Below the pieces are notes generated by a model. The model did not search any database, was not told the origin of the DNA, and was given only the letters and a program-made list of their open reading frames with translations. From a virus, in the IMG/VR virus record IMGVR_UViG_3300036766_000032, positions 11,897 through 75,896 of that record: DNA of 64,000 nt. One strand, 5' to 3'. Positions 11,478-58,579 of this stretch are shown here, in pieces. The translations under genes and the position numbers were made by a program. How positions within the stretch are numbered: position 1 is the first letter of the stretch; every line of letters starts with the position of its first letter.

Positions 11478-11944
11478 CGATTAAGTTCGAACTCGGTGAA
11501 CGTGTCGGCATACAACCTGCCCGCACATACGCAAACGCCGAGCTCTGGTCAACTGGGACAATAACGAGAGTCACGAAGACCTTGGTCGAAGTGACTACGG
11601 ACAGCGGGTCGAAGAAACGCTTCCGCATCTCGGACTGGCGCGACGCCGATTCTTCATCCGAGTGGAATCGAGCCTTCCTTTGCATCGAAGCGCATGCTCT
11701 GGAACACAATGTCTCGGCCAGGAAGAAGCAAGAGACTCAGCGCGCTCGCACTGAGTTAACCAAGACAATCGCGGAAGCTTCCCCTGACCACGTGCTCAGG
11801 CTCCGTGCGCTGGTGGCTGCGTTCATGGTCGATGAAGCTGAGCGTGTTAGAATTCAAGGACTCGTCGATGCGAAGTTACAGGGTGGGGGAACGACTTGCG
11901 AGGAAGCGCGCTCTGCCTCTACGGACAGCTACCTGGATAAGTGA
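11474..11944 (+). CDS. Hypothetical protein (small N-terminal beta-barrel plus helical part)
   Basis: ATGA overlap. Confidence 0.65.
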   Translation: MTIKFELGERVGIQPARTYANAELWSTGTITRVTKTLVEVTTDSGSKKRFRISDWRDADSSSEWNRAFLCIEAHALEHNVSARKKQETQRARTELTKTIAEASPDHVLRLRALVAAFMVDEAERVRIQGLVDAKLQGGGTTCEEARSASTDSYLDK

Positions 11945-39064: not shown

Positions 39065-40021
39065 TTACGCCACCGCGCCGCTGAAGAAGTAGCCTGCGTC
39101 CGTCATGACCACTTTCTGATCATAAGAGAACTCGCCTTCCACGCGGTCCGACTCCAGGTGTTCCATACGGAAGCGCTTAACACGCACGCCACCATTGGCA
39201 CCTGAGAACTTCGACCATGTGAACGAGTATCCTGCCGACGGAACCATCAGCCCAGGACTTGGCGCTACGAAGCACAACAGCGCATGCTTGCCAAGTACGA
39301 ACGCGTCGACGTCGGTCGCAGCGAGCTCTTCGCTCGTCGTGTAAGACGCTTGTGCTACGATGTACCGATCCACTTCGAAGAAGCGCGCCAATAACGCCGT
39401 AGTGATCGCATCCGACGTGGTGTGCTTGTACCGATCGGTTATGATCGGATGACGTTTCAAAGCTTGATGCACATCGTACCCGACCACGAGAGTGTTCGGA
39501 TTCAGACCGAGAGCCTTGCGGATCTTGGTCTTGCCAGCGTCGATGTCTGCTTCCGGGTCGGATCCACCGTCATCCCAAAGTGCGAAGTCGGTGCTGCCGG
39601 TCTTATCCGTTCCCCACACGCTGGTGGTGAAATACTTAGTTCCCCAGTTGACTTCTTTCTGGATCAGCATCTGCTGAGTGATGAACTCAGTGGCGCTGCG
39701 ATCCATGTCCAACGAAGGGTCCGCGTTGTTACGGATCTGGTCCGGAACGTCGTGGTGGAACGCGTATACCTCCGCTTTGTAAGTGTCAGTGTCCACGTTG
39801 AAGCCGCTACCGGCGGATTCAGCGCCAGGAGCACGAGGGCGCGCGTTGTTACGACGGAAGTCCCGGCTGCGATACTTGAAATAAGAATCGGACTGGAACT
39901 CCACGGGAACTGCCGGAAATACTTGCGTCGCGACGAAGTCGGATGCACTCTGAATAGCAGCGACAGCAATGTTAGTCAGTGAACGTACGACGTGCACGTC
40001 ACCTCGTGTGGGTTGCGGCAT
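39065..40021 (-). CDS. Major capsid protein (lambda gpE-like HK97 fold)
   Basis: LTN...A......FVA..VFP.VPV, PN.LV.G..V...L..HP; synteny. Confidence 0.92.
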   Translation of the reverse strand: MPQPTRGDVHVVRSLTNIAVAAIQSASDFVATQVFPAVPVEFQSDSYFKYRSRDFRRNNARPRAPGAESAGSGFNVDTDTYKAEVYAFHHDVPDQIRNNADPSLDMDRSATEFITQQMLIQKEVNWGTKYFTTSVWGTDKTGSTDFALWDDGGSDPEADIDAGKTKIRKALGLNPNTLVVGYDVHQALKRHPIITDRYKHTTSDAITTALLARFFEVDRYIVAQASYTTSEELAATDVDAFVLGKHALLCFVAPSPGLMVPSAGYSFTWSKFSGANGGVRVKRFRMEHLESDRVEGEFSYDQKVVMTDAGYFFSGAVA

Positions 40022-40080: not shown

Positions 40081-40482
40081 TTACGCGTGTTCAACGATGA
40101 ACGTCGGGAACCCGACTGTTACCGTGGCCAGTTCCCCGGTCGCAGCACCGACGAGAACCTGTCCTGCCACGTAGTCACCAAGATCAGCGCCCGTGTACGT
40201 CTTCTCAACCTTCGTTGCCTTGCCTAGCGTGGTGGTCCCCCAGTAGTCACCGGCCACCAGAGCTTCTGCCGCCATGACCTTCGTCACTCCCAACACCATT
40301 ACTTCACCCGCCATGCCGGAGTCCGGCTTGTCTTGCAACACACCCAGCAGAACTTCACCGTCCGTGTCACAGAGCGAAAACTGATTGTCCGCCGACACCT
40401 TGACGCACTTGTACTGATTGCTCGCCATGCTGGCGTTCGCAACCAGTGCGCCGATACTGCCAATCTTCTGTTCCCATGCCAT
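40081..40482 (-). CDS. Capsid cement/decoration protein
   Basis: QY..VK, GVLQ.KP..G....V...GV.KV.A. Confidence 0.8.
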   Translation of the reverse strand: MAWEQKIGSIGALVANASMASNQYKCVKVSADNQFSLCDTDGEVLLGVLQDKPDSGMAGEVMVLGVTKVMAAEALVAGDYWGTTTLGKATKVEKTYTGADLGDYVAGQVLVGAATGELATVTVGFPTFIVEHA

Positions 40483-41507: not shown

Positions 41508-43775
41508 TCACCTAGTTAGCGGGCGGATAGCTTTTTCTGCAAGCCCGCCTATTGAGAATCCAGTCAATTCCCCTTTCTCTACTTTATTCCATGTTTCGTC
41601 GTCACTGACTTTAACGGTCATCATCCAAGATCCTTGTTTGATCTTTCTACCTTCTATAGTTAGAGAAACGGGAGCCACCCAGCTCTCAACCACGAAGCAG
41701 TGCGGATTCTGTTGGGCGTGCTGTACTCCCACTGCCCGACTCTTTACTAGATAATTGTGCGCAGCTTGTTCGATTACCTCGGAACTCGCATACTCATCTT
41801 GAGTGTCAAGTTCATCTGGCTCCATCACCAGTCCCGTGACGAGCCGCTTCTTCGCGTTCTTCGTAACGATGGTGACGTCGTTCTTGACCGTCTTCAGTTC
41901 TATTAGTTCTGGCTCGGTGCCCGGTTTCGCCCAGATGAGTTTATCGTGACCCCGTTTCTTCAGATCCGCCACAACGTCTTCAAGTTTCTGAGACTCTGCC
42001 ATCGGCGTTTGGTCAACCGGCTTACCGATCATCCACACTCTCCGTGCCGGACCCATCGGAACTGACGCAATGATATAGCGCCCATCGAGCTTGTCACCAT
42101 GTACGAACACTTCCGCGAAGTGGCGGTGTCGCACTCCCATCTGGTAAGTGCCGTGATCAAGCGCGAAGAACTTCGCATACGTGTTAGCGGTCGCGCCGAC
42201 GCCCGCTGGTTCCACAAGAAGCGGAGCGCGTACACCGACGTCGAGCCACGGCTTCGGCTGTGCCAGTTTGAACGTGCCTTGTAGTTTGTCGTCTGGTGGA
42301 AGATGCTCTAATCGGTCCCCTTTTCTATTCGCATCTGTGGTGCCTATGAACGCTGAGAAACCCCACAGAGCGTCGTCAGCTTCGAACCGCAGATCCCCGT
42401 GTACGCTGTGGTCCGTCTTCATGAGTTCCGCATCACTCAACCCAGTCTCATCCAATTCGTCATTCTTCAGCAACCCGCGCCAGTGGTGTTGATATACAAA
42501 TCGTCCGTTGCCAGACTTCGGGTAAGTCCGGAACCAGTTATCCCGCCAGAACTTCTCCGCTGACTCCCCATGCGTATCCCCCTCTTCACCGGCTGCCTTT
42601 TTGACTTCCTTGTCTTGCAACACACTCCCACGCTGCGCTATGTCGATCGCTTGCTTTGCTGCGTACGGAGCCTTGCGAGTGGGGTCTACGTCCATGACGT
42701 TAGCGCCGAGCCACACCAGAGTCTTCTTTTCTTCGTCGGGGATCAACTCAAGCACGCGAACGGTTATGATGTCACCGACCTTCGCTTTCACCTTGGTGTT
42801 GAATGACCACCCGAGGTCGACGAATCCGTCCTTCGCAAGCGTCACGTTTTCCCAGCCATCGCTGGGTGATGCGCTCAGTCCGCCGCGATAGTTGTACATA
42901 CCCCCGGCCACGTCCTTCGTGTCCAAAACCTGTACCTTCAATTCCGCCACCTTCTTGACCTTGCTCCACTCGTTGGTCTCGCCAACCGGGTAGGGTCCGC
43001 TCGCCGTCTTCGCCATCGCGCCTTCAGAGCGTGGGATGCTGTACGCCTGATGCACTGCGTCGACGAGTTTGTCGTGTGTGTCGACCCATTTCACGGGGGA
43101 CAGACGGATGAATCGGTCATCGAAGAATGAATTCGGAAGTTCTTCAAGCTGCTTACGACGTTCTACGAACGGAAGCTCTGATAGGTCATCCGCGTAGTAC
43201 GGCATGTCGAACAAGGTAACTACAGGAACTTCATTTACAACGAAGACGGGTTTATCGGAGTTGAGTCGCATCAGCTCCGGGCGCGCCAAGCGCTTCCCCT
43301 CCTTCTCTATTCCCAGATCAGCGTCAAAGATCCAGGATCCAGGTATCTTTGCAAATGCAGTCTTAAGATTCGGCAACGTCTCGAACAGATTACGGGAAGC
43401 GTTCCCTTCGGTCCACATCTTCAGTCTGTCACCCTTCTTTTCAACGATGACTCGGAACCCGTTCCACTTCGGCTCGATCGCGACTGGGAGCTTGTCCTTT
43501 GCCCAGTCCCACAGTTCGGTCGTCGAGAATATCTCAGTGAGTCCAGCGAGCGAAGGCTTGGCGGGAACGAACGGCTTGAACGGAGACATCGACTTCTGAA
43601 CTTCACGCTTCAACGTCACCAGCAACGGTCCAATCCGCCCTCCAGACTTTGACACCGCCAGTTGCTCAAGCTCATACAACTGACGAATCAAAGCGCGCGG
43701 ATCCGCTCCTGGCAGCTCAAGCTTACCAACTAGCTGGTCGATACAGTCAACGATCTCCGCAGTATCATCACGCAT
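41508..43775 (-). CDS. Fusion of ATP-dependent ligase, LigD-type 3'-phosphoesterase-like domain and XkdF-type prohead protease
   Basis: EPKWNGFR, FDAD, LFD, EGAMAK, WSKVK; FVYQHH..HGDLRFE, DHGTY, G.KL.GRY; LV.G.V.EPD..D.Q, QH, VESW, GSW, GFSIGG. Confidence 0.85.
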   Translation of the reverse strand: MRDDTAEIVDCIDQLVGKLELPGADPRALIRQLYELEQLAVSKSGGRIGPLLVTLKREVQKSMSPFKPFVPAKPSLAGLTEIFSTTELWDWAKDKLPVAIEPKWNGFRVIVEKKGDRLKMWTEGNASRNLFETLPNLKTAFAKIPGSWIFDADLGIEKEGKRLARPELMRLNSDKPVFVVNEVPVVTLFDMPYYADDLSELPFVERRKQLEELPNSFFDDRFIRLSPVKWVDTHDKLVDAVHQAYSIPRSEGAMAKTASGPYPVGETNEWSKVKKVAELKVQVLDTKDVAGGMYNYRGGLSASPSDGWENVTLAKDGFVDLGWSFNTKVKAKVGDIITVRVLELIPDEEKKTLVWLGANVMDVDPTRKAPYAAKQAIDIAQRGSVLQDKEVKKAAGEEGDTHGESAEKFWRDNWFRTYPKSGNGRFVYQHHWRGLLKNDELDETGLSDAELMKTDHSVHGDLRFEADDALWGFSAFIGTTDANRKGDRLEHLPPDDKLQGTFKLAQPKPWLDVGVRAPLLVEPAGVGATANTYAKFFALDHGTYQMGVRHRHFAEVFVHGDKLDGRYIIASVPMGPARRVWMIGKPVDQTPMAESQKLEDVVADLKKRGHDKLIWAKPGTEPELIELKTVKNDVTIVTKNAKKRLVTGLVMEPDELDTQDEYASSEVIEQAAHNYLVKSRAVGVQHAQQNPHCFVVESWVAPVSLTIEGRKIKQGSWMMTVKVSDDETWNKVEKGELTGFSIGGLAEKAIRPLTR

Positions 43776-50220: not shown

Positions 50221-50391
50221 TTAAACGACGATACATCCACCACGCGTGTGGAGGACGCTTTCTGCACCTTCCGACTTCCCTTTAAACCGAGTCTTCTTCA
50301 AATGCGCCTTCCACTTCTCCGATAATTCAAGCCACGGCCAATCCTTATCCCATTCCTGTACCTGTACCTGACCGTCCAACCTTCTAACCAC
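50221..50391 (-). CDS. 56-aa hypothetical protein, absent from the ORF track (MVRRLDGQVQVQEWDKDWPW...)
   Basis: GTG start behind GAGGG, overlapping the upstream stop. Confidence 0.5.
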   Translation of the reverse strand: MVRRLDGQVQVQEWDKDWPWLELSEKWKAHLKKTRFKGKSEGAESVLHTRGGCIVV

Positions 50392-50560
50392 TGCCCTCGC
50401 ATTCCATATTCGGCTTGTACAAAGCCTCGTTCAACTTCGCCGCTTCCTGCTTGGCTAGTGCTTCATCGAGCGCTTTATCCAGCGCGTCGTCCCATCGATC
50501 GAACGGATCCTTACCGGGTTCCGCTGTCGACGAGCTTGGGGGTTTCTCCGGTGTTGTCAT
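50384..50560 (-). CDS. Small acidic protein, candidate antitoxin for the zeta-like domain
   Basis: GGAGG RBS; overlaps the 3' end of the polyprotein gene. Confidence 0.55.
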   Translation of the reverse strand: MTTPEKPPSSSTAEPGKDPFDRWDDALDKALDEALAKQEAAKLNEALYKPNMECEGSG

Positions 50561-53534
50561 ACTTCCTCCAGGATTTCGCATATGGTTTTAATGCGTCGTA
50601 GCTCTTATCAATACCAGACCCGAATGCCGTGGCCGCGTACACTGGCGGAACAAACCGACCCCCTTTCTTGAACCGCTCGTACGCACGTTGACCGGATTTA
50701 AGATCGCTGACGTGAACCTGCACCACGTGCACGTCGTACCCAAGTCTGGTCAACTTCTCCGCCATTTTTTCCATCTTTGTGGTATTCTTACCGGTCATAT
50801 CGAACACCGCATTGTGGCGCCCAGCGAGCACCTTACCCATGAAGTCCTTCTCCGCGATGTCCGCCGCGCGCTCGTGATACGCTCCTGCAAGTCTTGGTGT
50901 GTAGCCCGGAAGCGCTTCCATCACTTTGTCCGCGTCTACTGTAGTGTACTCTCCTTTTAGATCCAGATGCTCCTTCCGAACGGTACTCTTCCCAGATCCC
51001 GGCTTGCCCATCATTACGACTGCTTGCGGACGCTCACCCGGAGCTGCCGCAGAATTCGGGTTGATCAACTTGGTCGCAATGTCGGCGTTCTCCGCCTTCG
51101 CTTCAGGTGTGTAGTCCACACCGTTGGTCGTAACTCCAGGATCGTTCTTGTGATCGCCACGGTCCGCGTTCGCCTTGTGCGCTGCGATGACGGCTGGATC
51201 TTGCTCCACTACAATCGAGAAGTCTTTGACAGACGTAGCGGTGAGCGGAGTTACTCCGGTCTCTGTCGATCGCGTTGATGTATCCCCACCACCACCTTCC
51301 CCAAACCTGCCCGCCTCTCCACGCGGATGCAACGATTCGTCCCAACCGGCTTTCTCGACGGACTCTTCCGTGTTGACAATGCGTACGATGTCGCCTGCTG
51401 CGTTGCGCTCAACCTCCTGCACTGTGCGCGTCGGACGCGGCACGCTGACCTGGATCACTGGAGCGAGTGCTTGTGGAACGTTGACGTGCACTGTAGGCGG
51501 TTGCACACTGAGCGCCATCGACTTGGAGATCGACTCTAGCAACACCAACGTCTGAGAATAGAATTCCGGGACTGTGTCTTTAGGCCCGATCGTTAGTTGC
51601 ACAGGAGTAGGTGCGAACAGCGCACGAGCGGCGAGTAGTTTAGCACGGACCTCGTCGGTGCTGGCCGCCTTGGTGATGCCTCGCAGCGCAGTCGCTACGC
51701 GCTTCATCGTGTTGTCCGGCTTGCGCAGCACGCCATGAACGTTGATCCGATCCCCGCCGCCGATTTCTTCAAGCTCCACTTGCTCGAAACAGGGTCGATC
51801 CTCCACGAACTTCGGGTTGGTCCAGAACGCGAACGAAGACTTGTTCCAGAACGTCTTGTGGTCTGGGTGTGCGAACGCCCCTTCTCCTCGGGTGGAGGGC
51901 GTCTCGAACTCTAACGTTCCGCCGGGCTTGAGCACTCTGTAAATCTCCCGCATGATCGCGTCGGCGTCAGAACAGTGTTCCAGGAAGTGGAGCGCACGTA
52001 TCTCATCAACCGAGTCGTCCCCGCACGGGATGCCGTTCTCCAAGTCCCATGTGACGTCCGCGTCTGACTCCGGGTTAGAGTCGATGCCGACGAACCCCTC
52101 TGCCTTGGACTTGCCGCACCCGAGGTCAAGCTTCAACTCGCCGTCCTTGAGAATACGGATCGCGTCTTCCGGGATGTCGTGCTTCGGTTGTTTACTCCCA
52201 CCGGTAAGGGAGCCGCCGATGTGAACGTCCCCGAGCGTCGGTTGGGACTTCTCCGTGGGCGCTCCTTCAGCATCAGTCAACTGGACATCCTTGCCTATCT
52301 CTATCTCTGTAATGTTTAGAACCTTGCGCGCCCATTCGCGATCCTGTTCCTTCGATTCTTCACTCAACTCAGAGTACGGAACGAACAGAGTCTTCCAACG
52401 GTCTATCCGCGCTGGAGTAATCTTTTCGGTGTCCATGATATTCTTGGCCCATTGACGCCACTGCTCATGTTCCAAGTCGGCAAGCTGCTCCAGAACGGAG
52501 TCCGATTTTGTAGTTGGTTCTTGGTCATCGTCCAACGGTTCAACGTACTCCGGTCCGGCAACGATGTCGAACTCCGGGAGCGCTGACGGTAGGTCGTTGG
52601 CTCCGTCTACGCTCAGAGTGATATGCGGAGAATACCCCTCATAGTCCCATCTAGCTCCTGAGTCAATCGCAGCCTGATGCTGCGCACGCAGAACCGGATG
52701 ATCTACGAACAGCACCGGACAGCCCTCCTCACCCAGTCGACCTAGCTTGAACTTCACAGCGCTCAATTCGACCGGGTCCTCGTATGCGCGGTGCTCTACC
52801 GGCGTTCGGCTGTAGACCGTGGTAATGTGGAATTCGTTTGCCGGGTGTATGTTCTTAAGTCCATTTTCTTCACACCACGCATGCAGACGCTCAGCCGACT
52901 CAGGCTGAAGCGCGAACGCAGCATACGTCCCTCTATCTGCGGACTTCACTACCTGTACTTCTGGAGTCGGACGCTTGCGCAGTACGAGGTCGTAGACCGG
53001 CACGAAGTCGTCGTGCGCGCCTTGTGGGTTGTAGATGAAGTGACAAATCCCTTTCTTGTCCGGGTCGAACACCTTGCGACACTGTAGCCAGACGTTCTCA
53101 TCCTGAATAAGGAAGTTGCCGAAGCCGTCGTTCTTTGCGCGGAACAGAATGTCCAGGTCGCCGGGATTTTCTTTGCCCTTGACGGTGGATCCGACGAGCG
53201 ACACGAAGTTCTGCACAACGACAAGTTCGTCCGGCGCGGACTCAAATGATGAACGGACATAATCAGGAAGCGTTGCCGCTTTACCCACGATGAGCTGAGT
53301 TAGCTCGCTGCCCTCATGTTTGAATCCACGCCGATCGAACTCTTGCAACACCCAGTCTGCGGCGTTGACGTAGTCCTCAATCGCCTTCCCGTTCTCATGT
53401 GCGGTGACGTACCATTGATTGAGCCTGAGCCACGCCATGCGGATCTCATCGTCGGACGCTGCCCGCAACTTCTCCGGAGTCATGTCGACCAGCGCCATTT
53501 TGACCACGCCCCCCAAAGGAGTCACTGCGCTCAC
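50511..53534 (-). CDS. Multi-domain effector protein: Pol-beta nucleotidyltransferase, Acb1-like 2H phosphoesterase, RyR domain, SAM methyltransferase, HPR motif, zeta-toxin-like kinase
   Basis: VGS...GDLD; HITTVYS and PHITLS; LA..EH.QW...LFVPYSELSE..KE.DR; LDLGCG...HFLEH; WDESLHPRG.AGRF; GKPGSGKS...GGRFVP...YDN. Confidence 0.85.
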   Translation of the reverse strand: MSAVTPLGGVVKMALVDMTPEKLRAASDDEIRMAWLRLNQWYVTAHENGKAIEDYVNAADWVLQEFDRRGFKHEGSELTQLIVGKAATLPDYVRSSFESAPDELVVVQNFVSLVGSTVKGKENPGDLDILFRAKNDGFGNFLIQDENVWLQCRKVFDPDKKGICHFIYNPQGAHDDFVPVYDLVLRKRPTPEVQVVKSADRGTYAAFALQPESAERLHAWCEENGLKNIHPANEFHITTVYSRTPVEHRAYEDPVELSAVKFKLGRLGEEGCPVLFVDHPVLRAQHQAAIDSGARWDYEGYSPHITLSVDGANDLPSALPEFDIVAGPEYVEPLDDDQEPTTKSDSVLEQLADLEHEQWRQWAKNIMDTEKITPARIDRWKTLFVPYSELSEESKEQDREWARKVLNITEIEIGKDVQLTDAEGAPTEKSQPTLGDVHIGGSLTGGSKQPKHDIPEDAIRILKDGELKLDLGCGKSKAEGFVGIDSNPESDADVTWDLENGIPCGDDSVDEIRALHFLEHCSDADAIMREIYRVLKPGGTLEFETPSTRGEGAFAHPDHKTFWNKSSFAFWTNPKFVEDRPCFEQVELEEIGGGDRINVHGVLRKPDNTMKRVATALRGITKAASTDEVRAKLLAARALFAPTPVQLTIGPKDTVPEFYSQTLVLLESISKSMALSVQPPTVHVNVPQALAPVIQVSVPRPTRTVQEVERNAAGDIVRIVNTEESVEKAGWDESLHPRGEAGRFGEGGGGDTSTRSTETGVTPLTATSVKDFSIVVEQDPAVIAAHKANADRGDHKNDPGVTTNGVDYTPEAKAENADIATKLINPNSAAAPGERPQAVVMMGKPGSGKSTVRKEHLDLKGEYTTVDADKVMEALPGYTPRLAGAYHERAADIAEKDFMGKVLAGRHNAVFDMTGKNTTKMEKMAEKLTRLGYDVHVVQVHVSDLKSGQRAYERFKKGGRFVPPVYAATAFGSGIDKSYDALKPYAKSWRKYDNTGETPKLVDSGTR

Positions 53535-55123
53535 GGTTTGCTACCTTGCAGTTTAGATGGATCAACGATCAACTTGCTAACAATGGAATCCGCAGAAGCT
53601 TTAGGCAGATTGAATGCAACGACAAGAATATCGGACGCTGCTTCCTTCGGAATGATACCCCCTACCACGTCCCTTAGAACTTCTCTCAGGGCAGTTACCT
53701 GAGCTCCGTTCAGGGCAGTGCTCGCCAGAGGAACGTCCGGTGAGATCTGTCCGCCTTCTCCAACCTGCGGCGCGCCTTCCCCAACTGGCGGAGTCCCTTC
53801 CATACCTTGCGGCGCAGTAGGTTCGAACCCCGGCTCCTCCGTCTTGGCGGGTAGGTGAGCCACTTCGCGCAAATAGGTTTCGAGCTCCTGGTCTGGGAAC
53901 AACTCCACTCCCGACCCCGCGAGCTTAGCGATGAAGTCGCTCAGAATCGACAAATCCGGCGTCACTACTTCCCCATGTTCCAACGTTGGATAGTCTTCTT
54001 CCGCGAATCCGTTGACATCCATCAACTTCGGGATCGCGTGTGCGTTGAACACGCTCTTGATTTCTGCGAGCCACGTACCGATCGCAGAAATGAACAGTGC
54101 AGTCTTACTTGTACTAAGAGCATAGCTCCCGACTTTATCGTGCCCAAGAAGAATGAAGTCCGCGAGAATCGTCATCGCCATGCGTTGCTCATAGCGCCCG
54201 ACGATCTCAGTTGTATTGAACTGACGGGAACCCCCAGAGTTCAGCAGCACGAGTTCGAACAACCGCTTACCCGTGGTCACGTCCGAGTCACCCGGCATAA
54301 TGATGCCTTCCTGCTCATCGCGCCGGATATTAGTCACGATCTTCTTCAACTCAGAGAACAGTGCTTGATCCGCCGCTGACGCAGAAGCAGACATGATCTT
54401 AGCGGGCGCATAGATAACCGGGAGTCCTGCCAAGTCGCGCTCTATGCCGATCCCTTCGATCTCTTCAATACGCTTCTTGAAATACCACGGACGGTACGCG
54501 TTGCGCACAACGGACTTGCCTTCCGGATTCCCCTTGTTCGCCGTTGTCCGGAACAGTAGGGACCGCTCAATGGGAATGAATACTTCATTGCCCTTTACCG
54601 GATCTTGCTGCCACGCCCCCTGCACTCCGCTGTTCTCATCGAACTGCCAGCGTACGATCGTCTCCTGCGCTCGAATCGGGATTTTGCGCCATCCGATCTT
54701 ACCATCCTCGAACTTGCTTTTCGAATCTCCCTTCGCGCCGAGCCGACGCTTGTACACCACCTCGTGATATGAGAACCCGTGCGGAAGGAACGTGATGATT
54801 GAACTGATGAGTGAGTCCCAGCTCTGACTCATGTCAAGAATACAGGTGTCTAGGAAGTCTGCTGCTGTCTTTGCTGCTGGAGTGCTGGAAGCCGCTTGCA
54901 CCCGCCACTTGACTTGACGTATGAGCATCTCGATCGCGAATAGCATCGACCCTATGATCGGGTCGTTCGTAGTCATCTCATTGATGACCTTAGAACGATT
55001 GAGCCCCTTTAACTCACGGAGCCATTCCTCTTCAATGTATCCGCCGTATTGCTTGAGCCCAGTCGTACCTAGTTCGCCAATGAGGCGGGAGGGTGTTAGC
55101 GAGTCGTCTACTTTATCAACCAC
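53531..55123 (-). CDS. Portal protein (DUF935-like)
   Basis: E.G.TGL, GFS.HE.VYK, NPEG.S..R.AY..W.FK....E.E.IG.ERD..G.P. Confidence 0.92.
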   Translation of the reverse strand: MVDKVDDSLTPSRLIGELGTTGLKQYGGYIEEEWLRELKGLNRSKVINEMTTNDPIIGSMLFAIEMLIRQVKWRVQAASSTPAAKTAADFLDTCILDMSQSWDSLISSIITFLPHGFSYHEVVYKRRLGAKGDSKSKFEDGKIGWRKIPIRAQETIVRWQFDENSGVQGAWQQDPVKGNEVFIPIERSLLFRTTANKGNPEGKSVVRNAYRPWYFKKRIEEIEGIGIERDLAGLPVIYAPAKIMSASASAADQALFSELKKIVTNIRRDEQEGIIMPGDSDVTTGKRLFELVLLNSGGSRQFNTTEIVGRYEQRMAMTILADFILLGHDKVGSYALSTSKTALFISAIGTWLAEIKSVFNAHAIPKLMDVNGFAEEDYPTLEHGEVVTPDLSILSDFIAKLAGSGVELFPDQELETYLREVAHLPAKTEEPGFEPTAPQGMEGTPPVGEGAPQVGEGGQISPDVPLASTALNGAQVTALREVLRDVVGGIIPKEAASDILVVAFNLPKASADSIVSKLIVDPSKLQGSKP

Positions 55124-55125
55124 GT

Positions 55126-55647
55126 CTATGCGCTCCCCTTCTTTGCTAGCAGTTCATTCTTCTGCGCGCTGCCGTGCGAGCTGCCATAATAGTACGTGAC
55201 TATGGACGCCCATGCCGTACCGAGGGAACCGAGCATGACCAGTAATGCGTCCCCTCCCGCTTCTGGTTTTCCATGAACCAACATCCACCCGAGCGTTCCG
55301 AAGAACCCGAGCGTGACGACGAACGCCAATACACGAGGCGTCCAGTCCTGTGTCGCTGTCTCCCGCTTACGTGCGCTGTCTCGGTCCAGTACGTCTAATT
55401 CTTCGCGACGCACGCCCAGCTCTTCAAGCTTCACAGCGAGGTCCGCTTCAATCTTCTTCAACGCAGCGAGTTGCTCGCCTGTGAGCTCGGCGGTCTCCAA
55501 CGCTTTCTGTACGCGGTCTTTTGTGGGCTCCGTAATGCCTAGCATCTCGCCAAGCTGAGACACCACGGCGCCCGCCCACGGCCCTCCCAATGCCGATGCG
55601 ACCGTCGGAGCGACCTTACCTACAACAGCTCGCCAGTCTAAGTTCAT
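55126..55647 (-). CDS. Holin (3TM/GTA-type)
   Basis: APT.A.ALGGP, DRDSAR.RE, TM helices, YY.GSS.GS..K. Confidence 0.8.
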
Positions 55648-55657
55648 TGCATGACCT

Positions 55658-56122
55658 CTATGATCCAATGCACCAGCCGCCGACAAGGCGCTTGCCCTTG
55701 CCATCATATGGCCGCGCCTGCCCAGAAGCCAGTATCCGGTCGCTCAAGTCTCCGCCGTCGACCGTGACAGACGCATCCATTCTGCCCGGATACGGATCTG
55801 GCCGCATATGATACGCGGACACGACCTTAGCATCCTTGAGTACGATCTCCAGGAACAGCTTCGCCTGTAGTGCTAGCGTCTTTTCACAATCAGTCTTAGC
55901 GCTCAGCTCCGGCGTGTCAATCCCAATGATACGGATGTGCGTCTTAATGTAGACATACGGCCATGGATTGACGTACGCCTCCAACGTGTCCCCATCGATC
56001 ACTCGAATAGACGACAGCGTGTAGGGTCCATACGTTTGAACTGCTCGCGTCTGATCTGCTCGCGTCTGATCTGAGTATAGCGCGAGAAGAACTACTGCGC
56101 TTGCAAATAGAAATTTGATCAC
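55658..56122 (-). CDS. Thermonuclease (SNase-like) with a signal peptide
   Basis: RVIDGDT, IRI.GIDTPE, D.Y.GR, G.A..YDG. Confidence 0.88.
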
Positions 56123-56139: not shown

Positions 56140-57060
56140 TTATAAGTCCAACGCCTCTCCACATCGGCACCGTGGGTGTAGAGGCGGATGCTCCGCAGTC
56201 AGTCCACCGACTGACGTCCATGTATCGCCCAGTGCTTGGGACTCACCATTAAGTGATTCACACTCCGGACACAATAAGTCGTCGTCAGCCGCTATCCACG
56301 TTACCTTGACGCCAGCGGGTAACAGGTCCGCGTCGATCGCTTGCTGCCACAGTGCGCGCTGCCCGGCACTAGCTGCCCGGATCGTCTCAGTGCGCGCGAT
56401 CGTCTCAGTGCGCTGCTTCAGCAGCCGCCCGGCATACGCCTCCGTCATGCGCGCGACTTGCGCCGCCGCTCGGCCGTCTTCTATCAGCTGTGTCTCGTAC
56501 GCTGACACCGCCTGCACCTGACGCGGGAGCAGTCCGATCAGGTCGCGGATCTTCTTCGCCTGCTCGAACGGGTGTCCGCCCTTTTCAAAGGCCGTGCGGA
56601 TCGTGGTGCGGATGCCCTCAAGCGTGTTGTCGTTGATCGACTTGATCAGCCCGAACGAGTAAGTCTTCAGAAACTCCAACGAGGCTGGATTGTTCAGATC
56701 GAACCGGAAGCCAAGCTCGGCGATCTTCGCTCCGACTGCCGCTGGTAGCGCCGCTGTCGAGAGCACGCCCGCTTCGTTAAAGATATTCCGCATCTCCTGC
56801 GCGGTCATGGTTAGGTATGCCGATTCGCTGGTGATGTTCAGCACTCTAAGTATCTCTGCCACGCTCCCCGTCTGAATTGCCTTTTCCAACTTCCACAGTT
56901 GGAGGTCTGACTTCAACCGGGCAATTGCAGTAAGAATCTGCTGCCGTATCTTCGGCGCCGCGCGGTCTGCGATGACATGAAGCTTCTTGTAAAATAGAGC
57001 ATCACTCCTATCATCTTTATAGACAGGCGACTTGACACTTCGTAAACGCGAAACGAACAT
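56140..57060 (-). CDS. MuF / SPP1 gp7-like minor head protein
   Basis: TIARTE, W.A..D...CP.C..L.G, PPLHPRCRC. Confidence 0.9.
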   Translation of the reverse strand: MFVSRLRSVKSPVYKDDRSDALFYKKLHVIADRAAPKIRQQILTAIARLKSDLQLWKLEKAIQTGSVAEILRVLNITSESAYLTMTAQEMRNIFNEAGVLSTAALPAAVGAKIAELGFRFDLNNPASLEFLKTYSFGLIKSINDNTLEGIRTTIRTAFEKGGHPFEQAKKIRDLIGLLPRQVQAVSAYETQLIEDGRAAAQVARMTEAYAGRLLKQRTETIARTETIRAASAGQRALWQQAIDADLLPAGVKVTWIAADDDLLCPECESLNGESQALGDTWTSVGGLTAEHPPLHPRCRCGEALDL

Positions 57061-57064
57061 GCGG

Positions 57065-58579
57065 TCATGCCCTCGCATTAGACGAGCGAAACGTGCTCGA
57101 CTTGGTGAGGGAGTGTAGCGTGATGGGACCCTGCTGAGTAGCCTCGTGGATTCGGATATGAAGGAGGAATTGACTCATCGAATCGATCTCATCCCAGTCC
57201 TTACCCTTTGGGAAATCCTTTAGAACCACTTCCAGGTCGAACAACCACGGGACGTTCATACTGGGGTCCGGGATACTTAGAACTCCCGCTTCGATCGAAG
57301 CTAGGTGTCTCTCCATCCTCATCGGTTTGTCTCCACTCGGCTCGACCCCGAGTATTGGCAGCACCTGGGGGTCAGAGTTATGTTGAGAAGGACCCATCTC
57401 CTGAATGATCTGTTGACCGGACGCCTTGTCCTCCACCAGGATGGTATCCGGCTTGAACTTCGCGGCTAGGTTTCGGACCGCAGCTTTCAACTCAGGATAC
57501 ACCAGACGATCCTTGAACAGGTCAATCAGGAACCATTGTGATCCGACTCTCCCGAATGTCTCGCACACGGAGGGATTGTTCATGTCAGCCGCTTTGTTCG
57601 CGGTATCCCATGACTGGATTATCTCATCGAACTTATGTGGAAGAGTCTTATGTCGTCGGAACCAGTCTATCTTGATCCGGTTGCCGCCTTGGATCGTGGG
57701 CTTCTGTTGGTACTGAGAGGTATACCCATACGTTCCGATCGTCTTCTTAATCCGGGCCGTCTCATCCGGTCCTATCCTACTTGGCTGTAAGAGTTCCCCC
57801 TCGGCTCGGATCTTGCGTTTTCCAGAGCGGGGAAAGATCACGGTCGTCTTACTAGGAGATTCGTTTGGGACTATGAGGTGCTCATACCCCCCAATGTCAA
57901 GTAGGTGACCCGTCAGGTCATGGGCGTCCAGTCTCTGCATGACCAGGATTTCCACCGTCGACTTAGGGTCATCCGATCGAGTTGACCAGGTATAAGTGTA
58001 CCAGCGGTTGACCGCGTCTATCTCAGCTCGACTGAATGCCTTGTTCGGATCTATCGGGTCATCAATGATCTTGATCCGGCCGCCCTCTCCGATCGAGGAA
58101 CCCCCGACAGAGACCGCGATTCGATGTCCACCAGCGGAGGTCTCGTAACGTTTCTTCGCATCCTGGAACTCGCTGAGTCCGACGTCCGGAAACGCGCTCC
58201 TATACCACGGCTCTCTCATAACCTTCCGGGTGTCCATCGAATGCTTGAGCGAAAGGTCCGCCACTCCTGACGCTGTGAGGATACGTTCGTTCGGTTGCTG
58301 ACCATGGACCCACGCTGGAAACCCGATGGTCGTACAGATGGATTTCAAGAAACGGGGGCCGATGTTGATTATCAGGCGGAGGATCTCTCGGTGGTAGCAG
58401 GCTTCGAGATACTCACTCATCAGATCAATGTGCCAGTTGTGTCTGTACACCGCCCCCGGGTCGACGGTCCCTAGGACGCGTTTGATCATTGGGGAGAGAT
58501 GCTCCCGGATGGCCCGACGTTCGGCCAAAGCTTCTGCGGCTTCGTACGGATCGATGTCGTTGATTGGTCCCGACGTCAC
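57065..58579 (-). CDS. terL: Terminase large subunit
   Basis: NWH, IN..PR..KS, IIDDP, MQRL, QYQQ.P, SWDTA, VEDKASG, D.IDS.SQ. Confidence 0.95.
   Translation of the reverse strand: MTSGPINDIDPYEAAEALAERRAIREHLSPMIKRVLGTVDPGAVYRHNWHIDLMSEYLEACYHREILRLIINIGPRFLKSICTTIGFPAWVHGQQPNERILTASGVADLSLKHSMDTRKVMREPWYRSAFPDVGLSEFQDAKKRYETSAGGHRIAVSVGGSSIGEGGRIKIIDDPIDPNKAFSRAEIDAVNRWYTYTWSTRSDDPKSTVEILVMQRLDAHDLTGHLLDIGGYEHLIVPNESPSKTTVIFPRSGKRKIRAEGELLQPSRIGPDETARIKKTIGTYGYTSQYQQKPTIQGGNRIKIDWFRRHKTLPHKFDEIIQSWDTANKAADMNNPSVCETFGRVGSQWFLIDLFKDRLVYPELKAAVRNLAAKFKPDTILVEDKASGQQIIQEMGPSQHNSDPQVLPILGVEPSGDKPMRMERHLASIEAGVLSIPDPSMNVPWLFDLEVVLKDFPKGKDWDEIDSMSQFLLHIRIHEATQQGPITLHSLTKSSTFRSSNARA

Follow-up and report, generated by a model that had tools for sequence, protein, structure and literature searches.

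A 1007-codon open reading frame in a phage head-gene block may encode a head-loaded polyprotein with tandem Acb1 and RyR domains

The subject of this analysis is a 1007-codon open reading frame (ORF) on the minus strand, at 50511-53534, of a 64,000-nucleotide stretch of viral DNA (hereafter the window), which corresponds to positions 11,897 to 75,896 of the IMG/VR record IMGVR_UViG_3300036766_000032. The encoded protein combines an Acb1-type phosphodiesterase and a RyR domain with three further enzyme-like modules, and its linkers carry short motifs resembling the N-terminus and propeptide junction of major capsid proteins (MCP). With moderate confidence, we lean towards a head-loaded polyprotein that would be processed into five or six enzymes and leave the capsid together with the DNA, its Acb1 and RyR pieces being directed against the signals of the CBASS and Thoeris defences.

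According to this proposal, a polyvalent cargo polyprotein would be made along with the head proteins and built into the procapsid, where an XkdF-type prohead protease (41508-43775) would cut it at [IVT]-x-K↓[A/S/N] linker sites (K197, K343, K429, K622, K728 and perhaps K85; the arrow marks the predicted cut). The freed enzymes would stay inside the capsid until they pass into the next host together with the DNA. The first piece would be a nucleotidyltransferase (NTase)-like domain and the second an Acb1 phosphodiesterase hydrolysing the cyclic di- and trinucleotides of CBASS; a RyR piece would act on Thoeris signals, an S-adenosylmethionine (SAM) methyltransferase piece would form a conserved pair with the NTase, a helical/hairpin piece (region X) would be released as its own fragment, and a zeta/AvrRxo1-like kinase piece would be headed by an HPR..GRF tag. 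We infer packaging, cleavage, ejection and every enzymatic activity from the domain identities, catalytic residues, module shuffling and capsid-like junctions described below.

Domain organization of the protein

The features of the ORF, all on the minus strand, are as follows.

50511-53534, minus strand: whole ORF, 1007 codons from GTG 53534, with the TAA stop at 50511-50513
52944-53498, minus strand: module N, residues 13-197, helical subdomain (14-83) and Pol-beta-like NTase core (91-193)
52506-52943, minus strand: module A, residues 198-343, Acb1-type 2H phosphodiesterase with Y204, H236-x-T238 and H304-x-T306
52248-52505, minus strand: module R, residues 344-429, short RyR/R12 (RyDEP-like) domain with H356, W359 and D398
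52200-52250, minus strand: linker motif K429↓SQPTLGDVHIGGSLTG, predicted prohead-protease site, copying the MCP N-terminus and propeptide junction
51705-52172, minus strand: module M, residues 455-610, class I SAM methyltransferase with motif I LDLGCG at residues 469-474
51351-51668, minus strand: region X, residues 623-728, comprising a pair of helices, a disordered stretch of V-N-V-P repeats and a beta hairpin at 703-724
51300-51350, minus strand: K728↓AGWDESLHPRGEAGRFG, HPR..GRF junction motif followed by a Gly-rich stretch
50514-51230, minus strand: module K, residues 769-1007, zeta/PezT/AvrRxo1-like P-loop kinase with Walker A K849, D869, D912, R950, R954 and R960

The first-pass annotation, made from the letters alone, had proposed this frame, which is indeed open across 1007 codons, and had named in it a nucleotidyltransferase (about 53279-52965, residues 86-190), an Acb1-like 2H phosphoesterase (52943-52527, residues 198-336), a RyR domain (52505-52311, residues 344-408), a methyltransferase (about 52145-51710; found at residues 462-608), an HPRG.xGRF motif (residues 731-745) and a zeta-like P-loop kinase. 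All of these domains were found at the positions given: the 2H domain was confirmed by sequence and fold and the kinase by Pfam and fold, the RyR domain was recovered though below the Pfam cut-off, and an NTase-like core was located at about 91-193.

The evidence is strong for modules A, M and K, weaker for module R and weakest for module N. For module A, Pfam matched residues 201-339 to Acb1 (PF23474; E 4e-25, scoring 88.7 bits where the cut-off is 27 and covering profile positions 1-142 of 144), and the same family scored 93.5 bits in the genome scan. A sequence match to Acb1 of Erwinia phage FBB1 (E 4e-7, 31-32% identity) aligned both HxT motifs and the first stacking Tyr; H236-I-T238 and H304-I-T306 fall on the FBB1 motifs, the corresponding tetrad in T4 being H44, T46, H113 and T115 (PMC9117128). 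In the AF2 model of residues 1-612 (mean pLDDT 78.9), the Acb1 part was mostly at 75-96, and this part resembled 7T26 by Foldseek (E 1.9e-9, TM 0.84, root-mean-square deviation (rmsd) 2.2 Å) and 7T27 by VIA (Z 16.7, rmsd 2.2 Å, 135 of 140 residues aligned); the fold score of LigT-type 2H enzymes was far lower (Foldseek E 1e-5). The ligand residues of Acb1, namely base-stacking Y12, W74, F107 and W147, Glu141 and the C-terminal lid, were also compared, and by sequence alignment only, Y204 coincided with stacking Y12 and aromatics were retained before the second HxT. The Acb1 reading of the 2H domain is well supported by sequence and predicted structure. The module thus shares the 2H fold, the HxT/HxT tetrad and the first stacking Tyr with characterized Acb1 (T4 gp57B; Erwinia phage FBB1, 7T26/7T27; Hobbs et al. 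2022, PMC9117128), but it is an internal polyprotein module in a head gene block rather than a free 152-residue protein, the lid Trp and one stacking Trp are unmatched, and its activity is predicted. Acb1 was also the only part of the protein to find counterparts by tblastn against 50,697 phage records (T4-like and other phages), in which no full-length relative was found.

Module R was matched to Pfam RyR (PF02026) over residues 343-407 and is accompanied by 63 short relatives, mostly of 69-90 residues and 50-65% identical, most of which carry PF02026. A preprint of May 2026 describes phage RyR domains (RyDEP) that either cut or sequester the cADPR signals of Thoeris (Lopez Rivera et al. 2026, PMC13232231); in RyDEP, His75 and Asp117 are catalytic, Trp78 supports the adenine and His100 makes contact with the phosphates, and among eight homologues six bound signals and none cleaved them. 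In an alignment with DyoEdafos gene 78, H356, W359 and D398 were aligned with RyDEP His75, Trp78 and Asp117, and the His, Trp and Asp of module R were invariant in 34 sequences including DyoEdafos gp78. An equal His-to-Asp spacing had been considered as proof of an ungapped alignment with RyDEP; this argument was dropped, as MAFFT introduced compensating indels. Judged by these residues, module R belongs to a short subfamily of the RyR family, with a predicted role as cleaver or binder of signals. Like RyDEP (PMC13232231), it is a helical PF02026-family domain with a conserved His-x-x-Trp and catalytic Asp; unlike RyDEP, it spans about 65-85 rather than 138 residues, lacks the GWxYG insert and His100, and adjoins Acb1. 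Because the RyDEP His, Trp and Asp are retained, Acb1 and RyR together read as a putative tandem anti-CBASS/anti-Thoeris cassette. That RyR is a now-known anti-Thoeris family had been missed in the first-pass annotation. The stand-alone members (P0166-P0228, mostly 69-90 residues) follow the consensus LEHEQW...RW..L.VPY.ELSE..KEQDREWARKV, in which the RyDEP His, Trp and Asp are present and His100 and the GWxYG insert are absent.

As for module N, the Pol-beta signature G[SG]-x9-13-D-x-[DE] with a third acidic residue is present, and the AF2 model placed this GS...DxD signature between strands 105-114 and 127-131. Residues G115, D126, D128, R153 and G172 were invariant among 20 homologues and S116 and D176 were found in at least 90% of them, G115-S116 and D126-x-D128 being invariant or nearly so across 20-31 homologues. 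NTP_transf_2 was weakly touched by 3 of the 20 homologues (best E 0.012), and the Foldseek and VIA matches listed for the residue 1-612 model were taken up by the methyltransferase and Acb1. The module ends in a nearly invariant VVK197↓S within a disordered linker.

Module M is a generic class I enzyme, based on a Methyltransf_11 match in Pfam (residues 496-541, 35.1 bits against a cut-off of 21.2) and on VIA matches to many methyltransferases (Z 12-14.5, rmsd 2.3-3.4 Å over about 135 residues). Region X, which contains P-x-V-x-V-N-V-P repeats and a hairpin with E-R-N-x-x-G-D-I-x-R-I, is shared with the protein P0088 (residues about 200-270), where an HPR motif and an ADP-ribosyltransferase come after it; this region might anchor the cargo in the procapsid.

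Junction motifs and their likeness to the capsid protein

The AF2 models displayed disordered linkers at residues 86-89, 194-200, 338-345, 407-452, 643-655, 676-699 and 745-758. The motif [IVTL]-x-K-[ASNG] occurred 10 times in the protein against 4.2 +/- 2.0 in shuffled sequences (P about 0.008), and six of the ten Lys sites (K85, K197, K343, K429, K622 and K728) were located in linkers, which make up 19% of the residues. K197 was nearly invariant in homologues despite a linker pLDDT below 50. Furthermore, K429 heads the peptide SQPTLGDVHIGGSLT (K429↓SQPTLGDVHI), and the same peptide forms the N-terminus, MPQPTRGDVHVVRSLT, of the MCP of this phage.

This N-terminus, M-P-Q-P-T-x-x-x-V-H-V/I-D/N-x-x-L-T-N-I-S, was conserved in all 73 related IMG/VR loci examined (L016-L095). 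In four relatives (six loci, two pairs being identical: L026/L027, L028/L029, L077 and L080), the MCP is preceded by a propeptide of 6-14 residues that ends in ...[I/L]-x-K directly before the N-terminal motif, as expected of a maturation site; the prohead protease would seem to remove this short segment. Seven more head-module ORFs in the propeptide-bearing loci contained internal K↓xxP...VHV copies. Among related cargo proteins, K-x-x-P-x-x-x-D-V-H-V was counted 14 times against 1.1 in shuffles, and the cargo copy GDVHVNRPL of locus L004 was identical to that in the MCP of the same phage. From these sequences we infer that the prohead protease probably cuts after Lys in the MCP propeptide and the cargo alike.

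The second junction motif, HPR..GRF, was found 36 times against 0.6 in shuffles, usually 7-8 residues past a Lys; it was present five times in P0011, and three adjacent head genes of L004 (2081-9633) together contained four copies. In the extended form [WF]-[DE]-E-x-x-[HQ]-P-R-x3-G-[RKQ]-[FW], followed by a Gly-rich stretch, it separates unrelated modules in P0011, P0045, P0046, P0088 and other proteins. The motif was found neither in Iyer 2017 or Jamet 2017, nor in a literature word search, nor in any Pfam family.

The fragments predicted from the Lys sites were comparable in size to free-standing homologues: Acb1 would be about 146 residues, RyR 86 (69-90 in the homologues) and the HPR-kinase 279 (280-317 in the homologues). 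This junction syntax is the strongest argument in support of the predicted head loading. In T4, internal proteins and Alt carry a capsid targeting sequence, are cut by gp21 at sites of the capsid-protein type and are ejected with the DNA. The protein studied here resembles such prohead cargo in that its enzymes carry sites like the capsid maturation site, in this case predicted from sequence; it differs in that the protease is of the XkdF/S78_2 family with Lys rather than Glu at P1, and in that five to six enzymes are placed on a single polyprotein.

Shuffling of the modules among head proteins

A full HMMER scan gave 13,917 matches, among which no second full-length protein was found, and the query modules were mapped on the best 150 of these. 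In about 50 cluster representatives, modules N and M lay next to each other or with only a short insert between them, constituting a conserved dyad of 47-57% identity. The HPR motif, linker and kinase behaved as a second unit, which also exists as stand-alone proteins of 280-317 residues.

The closest relative, P0017 (1367 residues), was shown to carry module N, Acb1, RyR, methyltransferase, DNA ligase and XkdF protease on one chain, and the XkdF prohead protease was present in 14 of 20 module N proteins. In loci L001-L003 the gene order is TerL-portal-MuF-[N-M-ligase-protease]-scaffold-MCP. In the window, a gene of its own, about 7 kb from the 1007-codon ORF, encodes the ligase-protease. Since N and M are fused to the ligase-protease in relatives and are encoded by a separate gene here, the 1007-residue protein looks like the detached N-terminal cargo of a protease polyprotein. 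The arrangement also looks as if the Acb1-RyR cassette had been inserted between N and M, with region X, the HPR motif and the kinase appended C-terminally. Other fusions join the modules to further head proteins: P0045 and P0046 (more than 2000 residues) contain the kinase together with two Acb1 copies, ART-PolyVal and MuF; in L004 a protein with 2H, motif and kinase is located between MuF and the protease; and portals bear a fused Acb1 in P0013-P0016 as well as in the solved structure 8HDS of the Pam3 portal. In the last of these, the cyanophage portal ends in an Acb1-like 2H domain (chain A, residues 488-611) with H-V-T and H-I-S motifs, which is not discussed in the Pam3 structure paper. 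No paper was found on the BCSR5 phosphodiesterase.

The first-pass annotation had conceived the protein as a virion-loaded toolbox delivered with the DNA and had suggested domain shuffling across relatives as a check; the modules were indeed found to be recombined with protease, MuF, portal and ligase. The toolbox idea gained comparative support because the gene lies in a minus-strand block of about 45 kb with head and tail genes, because the NTase-(Acb1-RyR)-methyltransferase block is fused to the XkdF protease in relatives, because Acb1 and the kinase are fused to portal or MuF in other phages, and because the joints resemble the MCP propeptide junction. Its toxin/immunity and MuF-linked part found no support, as described below for the kinase.

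These properties are in good agreement with those of phage polyvalent proteins (Iyer, Burroughs, Anand, de Souza, Aravind 2017, PMC5512222), a class known since 2017: several unrelated enzymatic domains share one chain, which in the present case holds five enzymatic or binding domains and is encoded among the head genes of a portal-terminase phage with portal, MuF and terminase as neighbours. That study lists 2H phosphoesterases, Pol-beta NTases and zeta-like kinases, suggests that such proteins are packaged, processed and injected, and assigns to 2H domains carried by MuF or portal a predicted role in degrading nucleotide signals. The present protein differs in that its chain has no MuF, portal or zincin protease hub, in that relatives carry the core dyad fused to the XkdF prohead protease, which the study does not mention, and in that the RyR domain and the two junction motifs do not appear in that paper. 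What is new here is the Acb1-RyR tandem, the insertion of this cassette into a protease-borne NTase-methyltransferase dyad, and a cargo joint directly like the propeptide junction of the capsid protein.

Packaged cargo or late cytoplasmic enzyme

Several points weigh against the head-loaded polyprotein as proposed. With respect to the modules, the Pfam RyR match (E 7.6e-4, 20.1 bits, or 24.4 in a second scan) stayed below the cut-off of 27.4, and RyDEP His100 is not retained, aligning to Thr or Lys at a position that is variable in the subfamily. In module A, the sequence alignment alone gave no aromatic at W74 and no Trp past the last strand (W147, C-terminal lid). Module N had no Pfam match, and a PDB profile search hit only the LigD phosphoesterase of longer homologues; the invariant GS...DxD signature had no profile match in this protein and no NTase among the listed fold matches beside it, and the NTase fold is plausible rather than confirmed. 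With respect to packaging, the 1007-residue chain lacks a MuF, portal or protease domain through which it could enter the procapsid, and being made late alongside structural proteins that set off CBASS or Thoeris could benefit the phage even if the protein were not packaged.

The last two points are also those on which an alternative is built, in which the protein would be a late, unpackaged multi-enzyme acting in the cytoplasm of the producing cell as one chain or after cleavage. The gene is within the late block, co-expression with head proteins would make sense if those trigger CBASS or Thoeris, an anchoring domain (MuF, portal or protease) is missing, and stand-alone Acb1 and RyDEP are soluble and made during infection, neither text mentioning the virion (PMC9117128, PMC13232231). 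Against this alternative, the modules are covalently joined to prohead protease, MuF or portal in relatives, and the junctions copy the MCP propeptide site. Prohead proteases are active inside procapsids, which does not fit with cytoplasmic action. Taking both sides into account, we consider the cytoplasmic enzyme unlikely, though the most serious of the alternatives.

The zeta-like kinase and the small ORF downstream

In the model of residues 600-1007, pLDDT values were above 96 from residue 769, and Pfam matched residues 832-971 to Zeta_toxin (PF06414; E 4e-17, 62.7 bits against 22.3), AAA_33 also being matched. The best folds were zeta 1GVN (E 1.5e-9), PezT and AvrRxo1, with polynucleotide kinases following at 8.5e-6. 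In 35 kinase sequences, G843-K849 (Walker A) and D869, the equivalent of zeta Asp67, were invariant or nearly so. In zeta, the GTXR motif (Gly117-Thr121) binds UDP-GlcNAc (UNAG) (PMC6362051). This motif is not retained here: E-G-T-G-R of zeta aligns to D912-M-T-G-K, and the Arg position varies in the family (K, A, N, S, R). The designation of zeta-like kinase is right, and that of a UNAG-kinase toxin is not supported because GTXR aligns to M-T-G-K and the Arg varies; judging from the sequences, the substrate is probably not UDP-GlcNAc. Compared with zeta/PezT and AvrRxo1 (1GVN, 3Q8X, 2P5T, 4Z8Q), the module shares the P-loop kinase fold, the N-terminal helices, the Walker A Lys and the catalytic Asp, but has no GTXR and no recognised epsilon-like antitoxin, the downstream 58-residue ORF being the only candidate, always lies behind the HPR..GRF tag and is found in phage head modules.

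The small acidic ORF noted in the first pass is present downstream.

50384-50560, minus strand: small acidic ORF, 58 residues from its likely start ATG 50560 behind GGAGGA, overlapping the last 50 nt of the large gene

It had been interpreted as an immunity gene of a MuF-linked toxin, and in the corresponding alternative the protein would be a MuF-type polymorphic toxin whose zeta-like kinase is injected as a UNAG-kinase toxin, with ORF 50384-50560 encoding the immunity protein. Consistent with this interpretation, the kinase carries the Zeta_toxin match and fold, the small ORF has a good ribosome-binding site, and small ORFs follow most MuF toxin genes (Jamet et al. 2017, PMC5576092). The class defined in that study, however, needs an N-terminal MuF and a temperate phage; the present protein has no MuF domain, MuF being a separate gene (56140-57078), and no tyrosine integrase match was obtained in the complete 75.9-kb genome. 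In addition, the UNAG-binding GTXR is not retained and is variable across the family, and searches returned no family match for the small ORF and no counterpart of it at 10 related kinase loci. In canonical systems the epsilon/PezA antitoxin gene precedes that of the toxin, contrary to the arrangement here. These features make a toxin-immunity pair very unlikely.

A further explanation concerns end repair. The protein would then be a kit of the Pnkp/Hen1 or LigD type mending phage DNA or host tRNA cut by defence nucleases, in which the 2H domain heals 2',3'-cyclic phosphates, the kinase phosphorylates 5'-OH ends, the methyltransferase caps the junction and the NTase adds nucleotides, in partnership with the ligase and 3'-phosphoesterase on the protease protein. 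Such a role is suggested by the enzymes joined to module N in relatives (among the 20 proteins, DNA ligase in 5, LigD phosphoesterase in 5, UDG in 8, LigT-type 2H in 2 and RNA ligase in 1), by Pnkp1 as the best profile-to-sequence PDB match of the kinase family (E 7e-9, with zeta level at 1.4e-8), and by the PHROGs label 'RNA ligase' of the 2H family. The 2H domain nevertheless fits Acb1 far better than LigT (Pfam Acb1 only; Z 16.7 as opposed to a Foldseek E of 1e-5), the kinase matches zeta, PezT and AvrRxo1 by fold more closely (E 1e-9) than it does polynucleotide kinase (8.5e-6), the RyR/RyDEP domain has no known repair role, and no Hen1 was found among the top methyltransferase fold matches. 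An end-repair kit is quite improbable on this evidence.

Returning to the head-loaded polyprotein, one extension of it is conceivable only as a speculation to which we give little credence. The whole chain might be a pre-loaded, protease-released kit against nucleotide immune signalling, the dyad and the kinase being undescribed classes of virion-delivered enzymes that disable immune nucleotides or NAD+/NTP precursors, and the capsid-like peptide at K429 might also load the cargo onto the scaffold. An example of such chemistry would be phosphorylation of the ribose hydroxyl that TIR enzymes need for cyclisation.

If the pieces truly travel in the capsid, the phage would be armed against CBASS and Thoeris before any gene expression, and the understanding of counter-defence timing would change, both being among the commonest signalling defences. 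The rule [IVT]-x-K↓[A/S/N] with K↓xxPTxxxVHV could serve to find and delimit head-cargo enzymes in a large uncultured phage group, the capsid relatives of which number more than 540 in IMG/VR. The NTase-methyltransferase dyad and the HPR-tagged zeta-like kinase, both widespread, are candidates for new chemistry.

Start codon and genome setting

The source record comprises 75,896 bp with direct terminal repeats and was judged 100% complete. Between about 59.2 kb and about 14 kb the minus strand carries nearly all long ORFs, and this block includes the following genes around the 1007-codon ORF.

57065-58579, minus strand: large terminase
56140-57078, minus strand: MuF, a separate 312-residue gene product
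55658-56122, minus strand: SNase-like nuclease (phrog_452)
55126-55707, minus strand: 193-residue ORF (phrog_1544, no assigned function)
53531-55123, minus strand: portal protein (Portal_Mu; phrog_113), directly upstream of the 1007-codon ORF
between 43775 and 50581, minus strand: several small or repeat-rich ORFs
41508-43775, minus strand: DNA ligase - LigD-type phosphoesterase - XkdF prohead protease, 755 residues
40540-41499, minus strand: scaffold
40081-40482, minus strand: 133-residue protein
39065-40021, minus strand: MCP, N-terminus MPQPTRGDVHVVRSLT

The start of the ORF was said in the first pass to overlap the portal stop (GTGA). This is true of GTG 53534 only; ATG 53498, which corresponds to M13, lies 32 nt past the portal stop. 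ATG 53498 is the start in the database gene call (995 residues) and in the closest homologue P0017, and it is the more likely start, although the choice is ambiguous. A scan for sigma-70 promoters and terminators around the ORF gave signals no higher than chance. PADLOC returned no match for the 1007-residue protein or the small ORF, and NCBIfam gave kinase and methyltransferase matches only, both sub-threshold.

In relatives, the NTase-methyltransferase dyad, UDG or a LigT-type 2H is found as well on the chain that corresponds to the 755-residue protein. Because ligase, phosphoesterase, dyad, UDG and 2H share its chain, the head protease appears to be a carrier of nucleic-acid enzymes. The SNase-like and phrog_1544 genes are located between MuF and portal, where relatives have no gene; the N-terminus of the SNase-like nuclease appears hydrophobic, and the 193-residue phrog_1544 protein has a membrane-associated look, as judged by its sequence.

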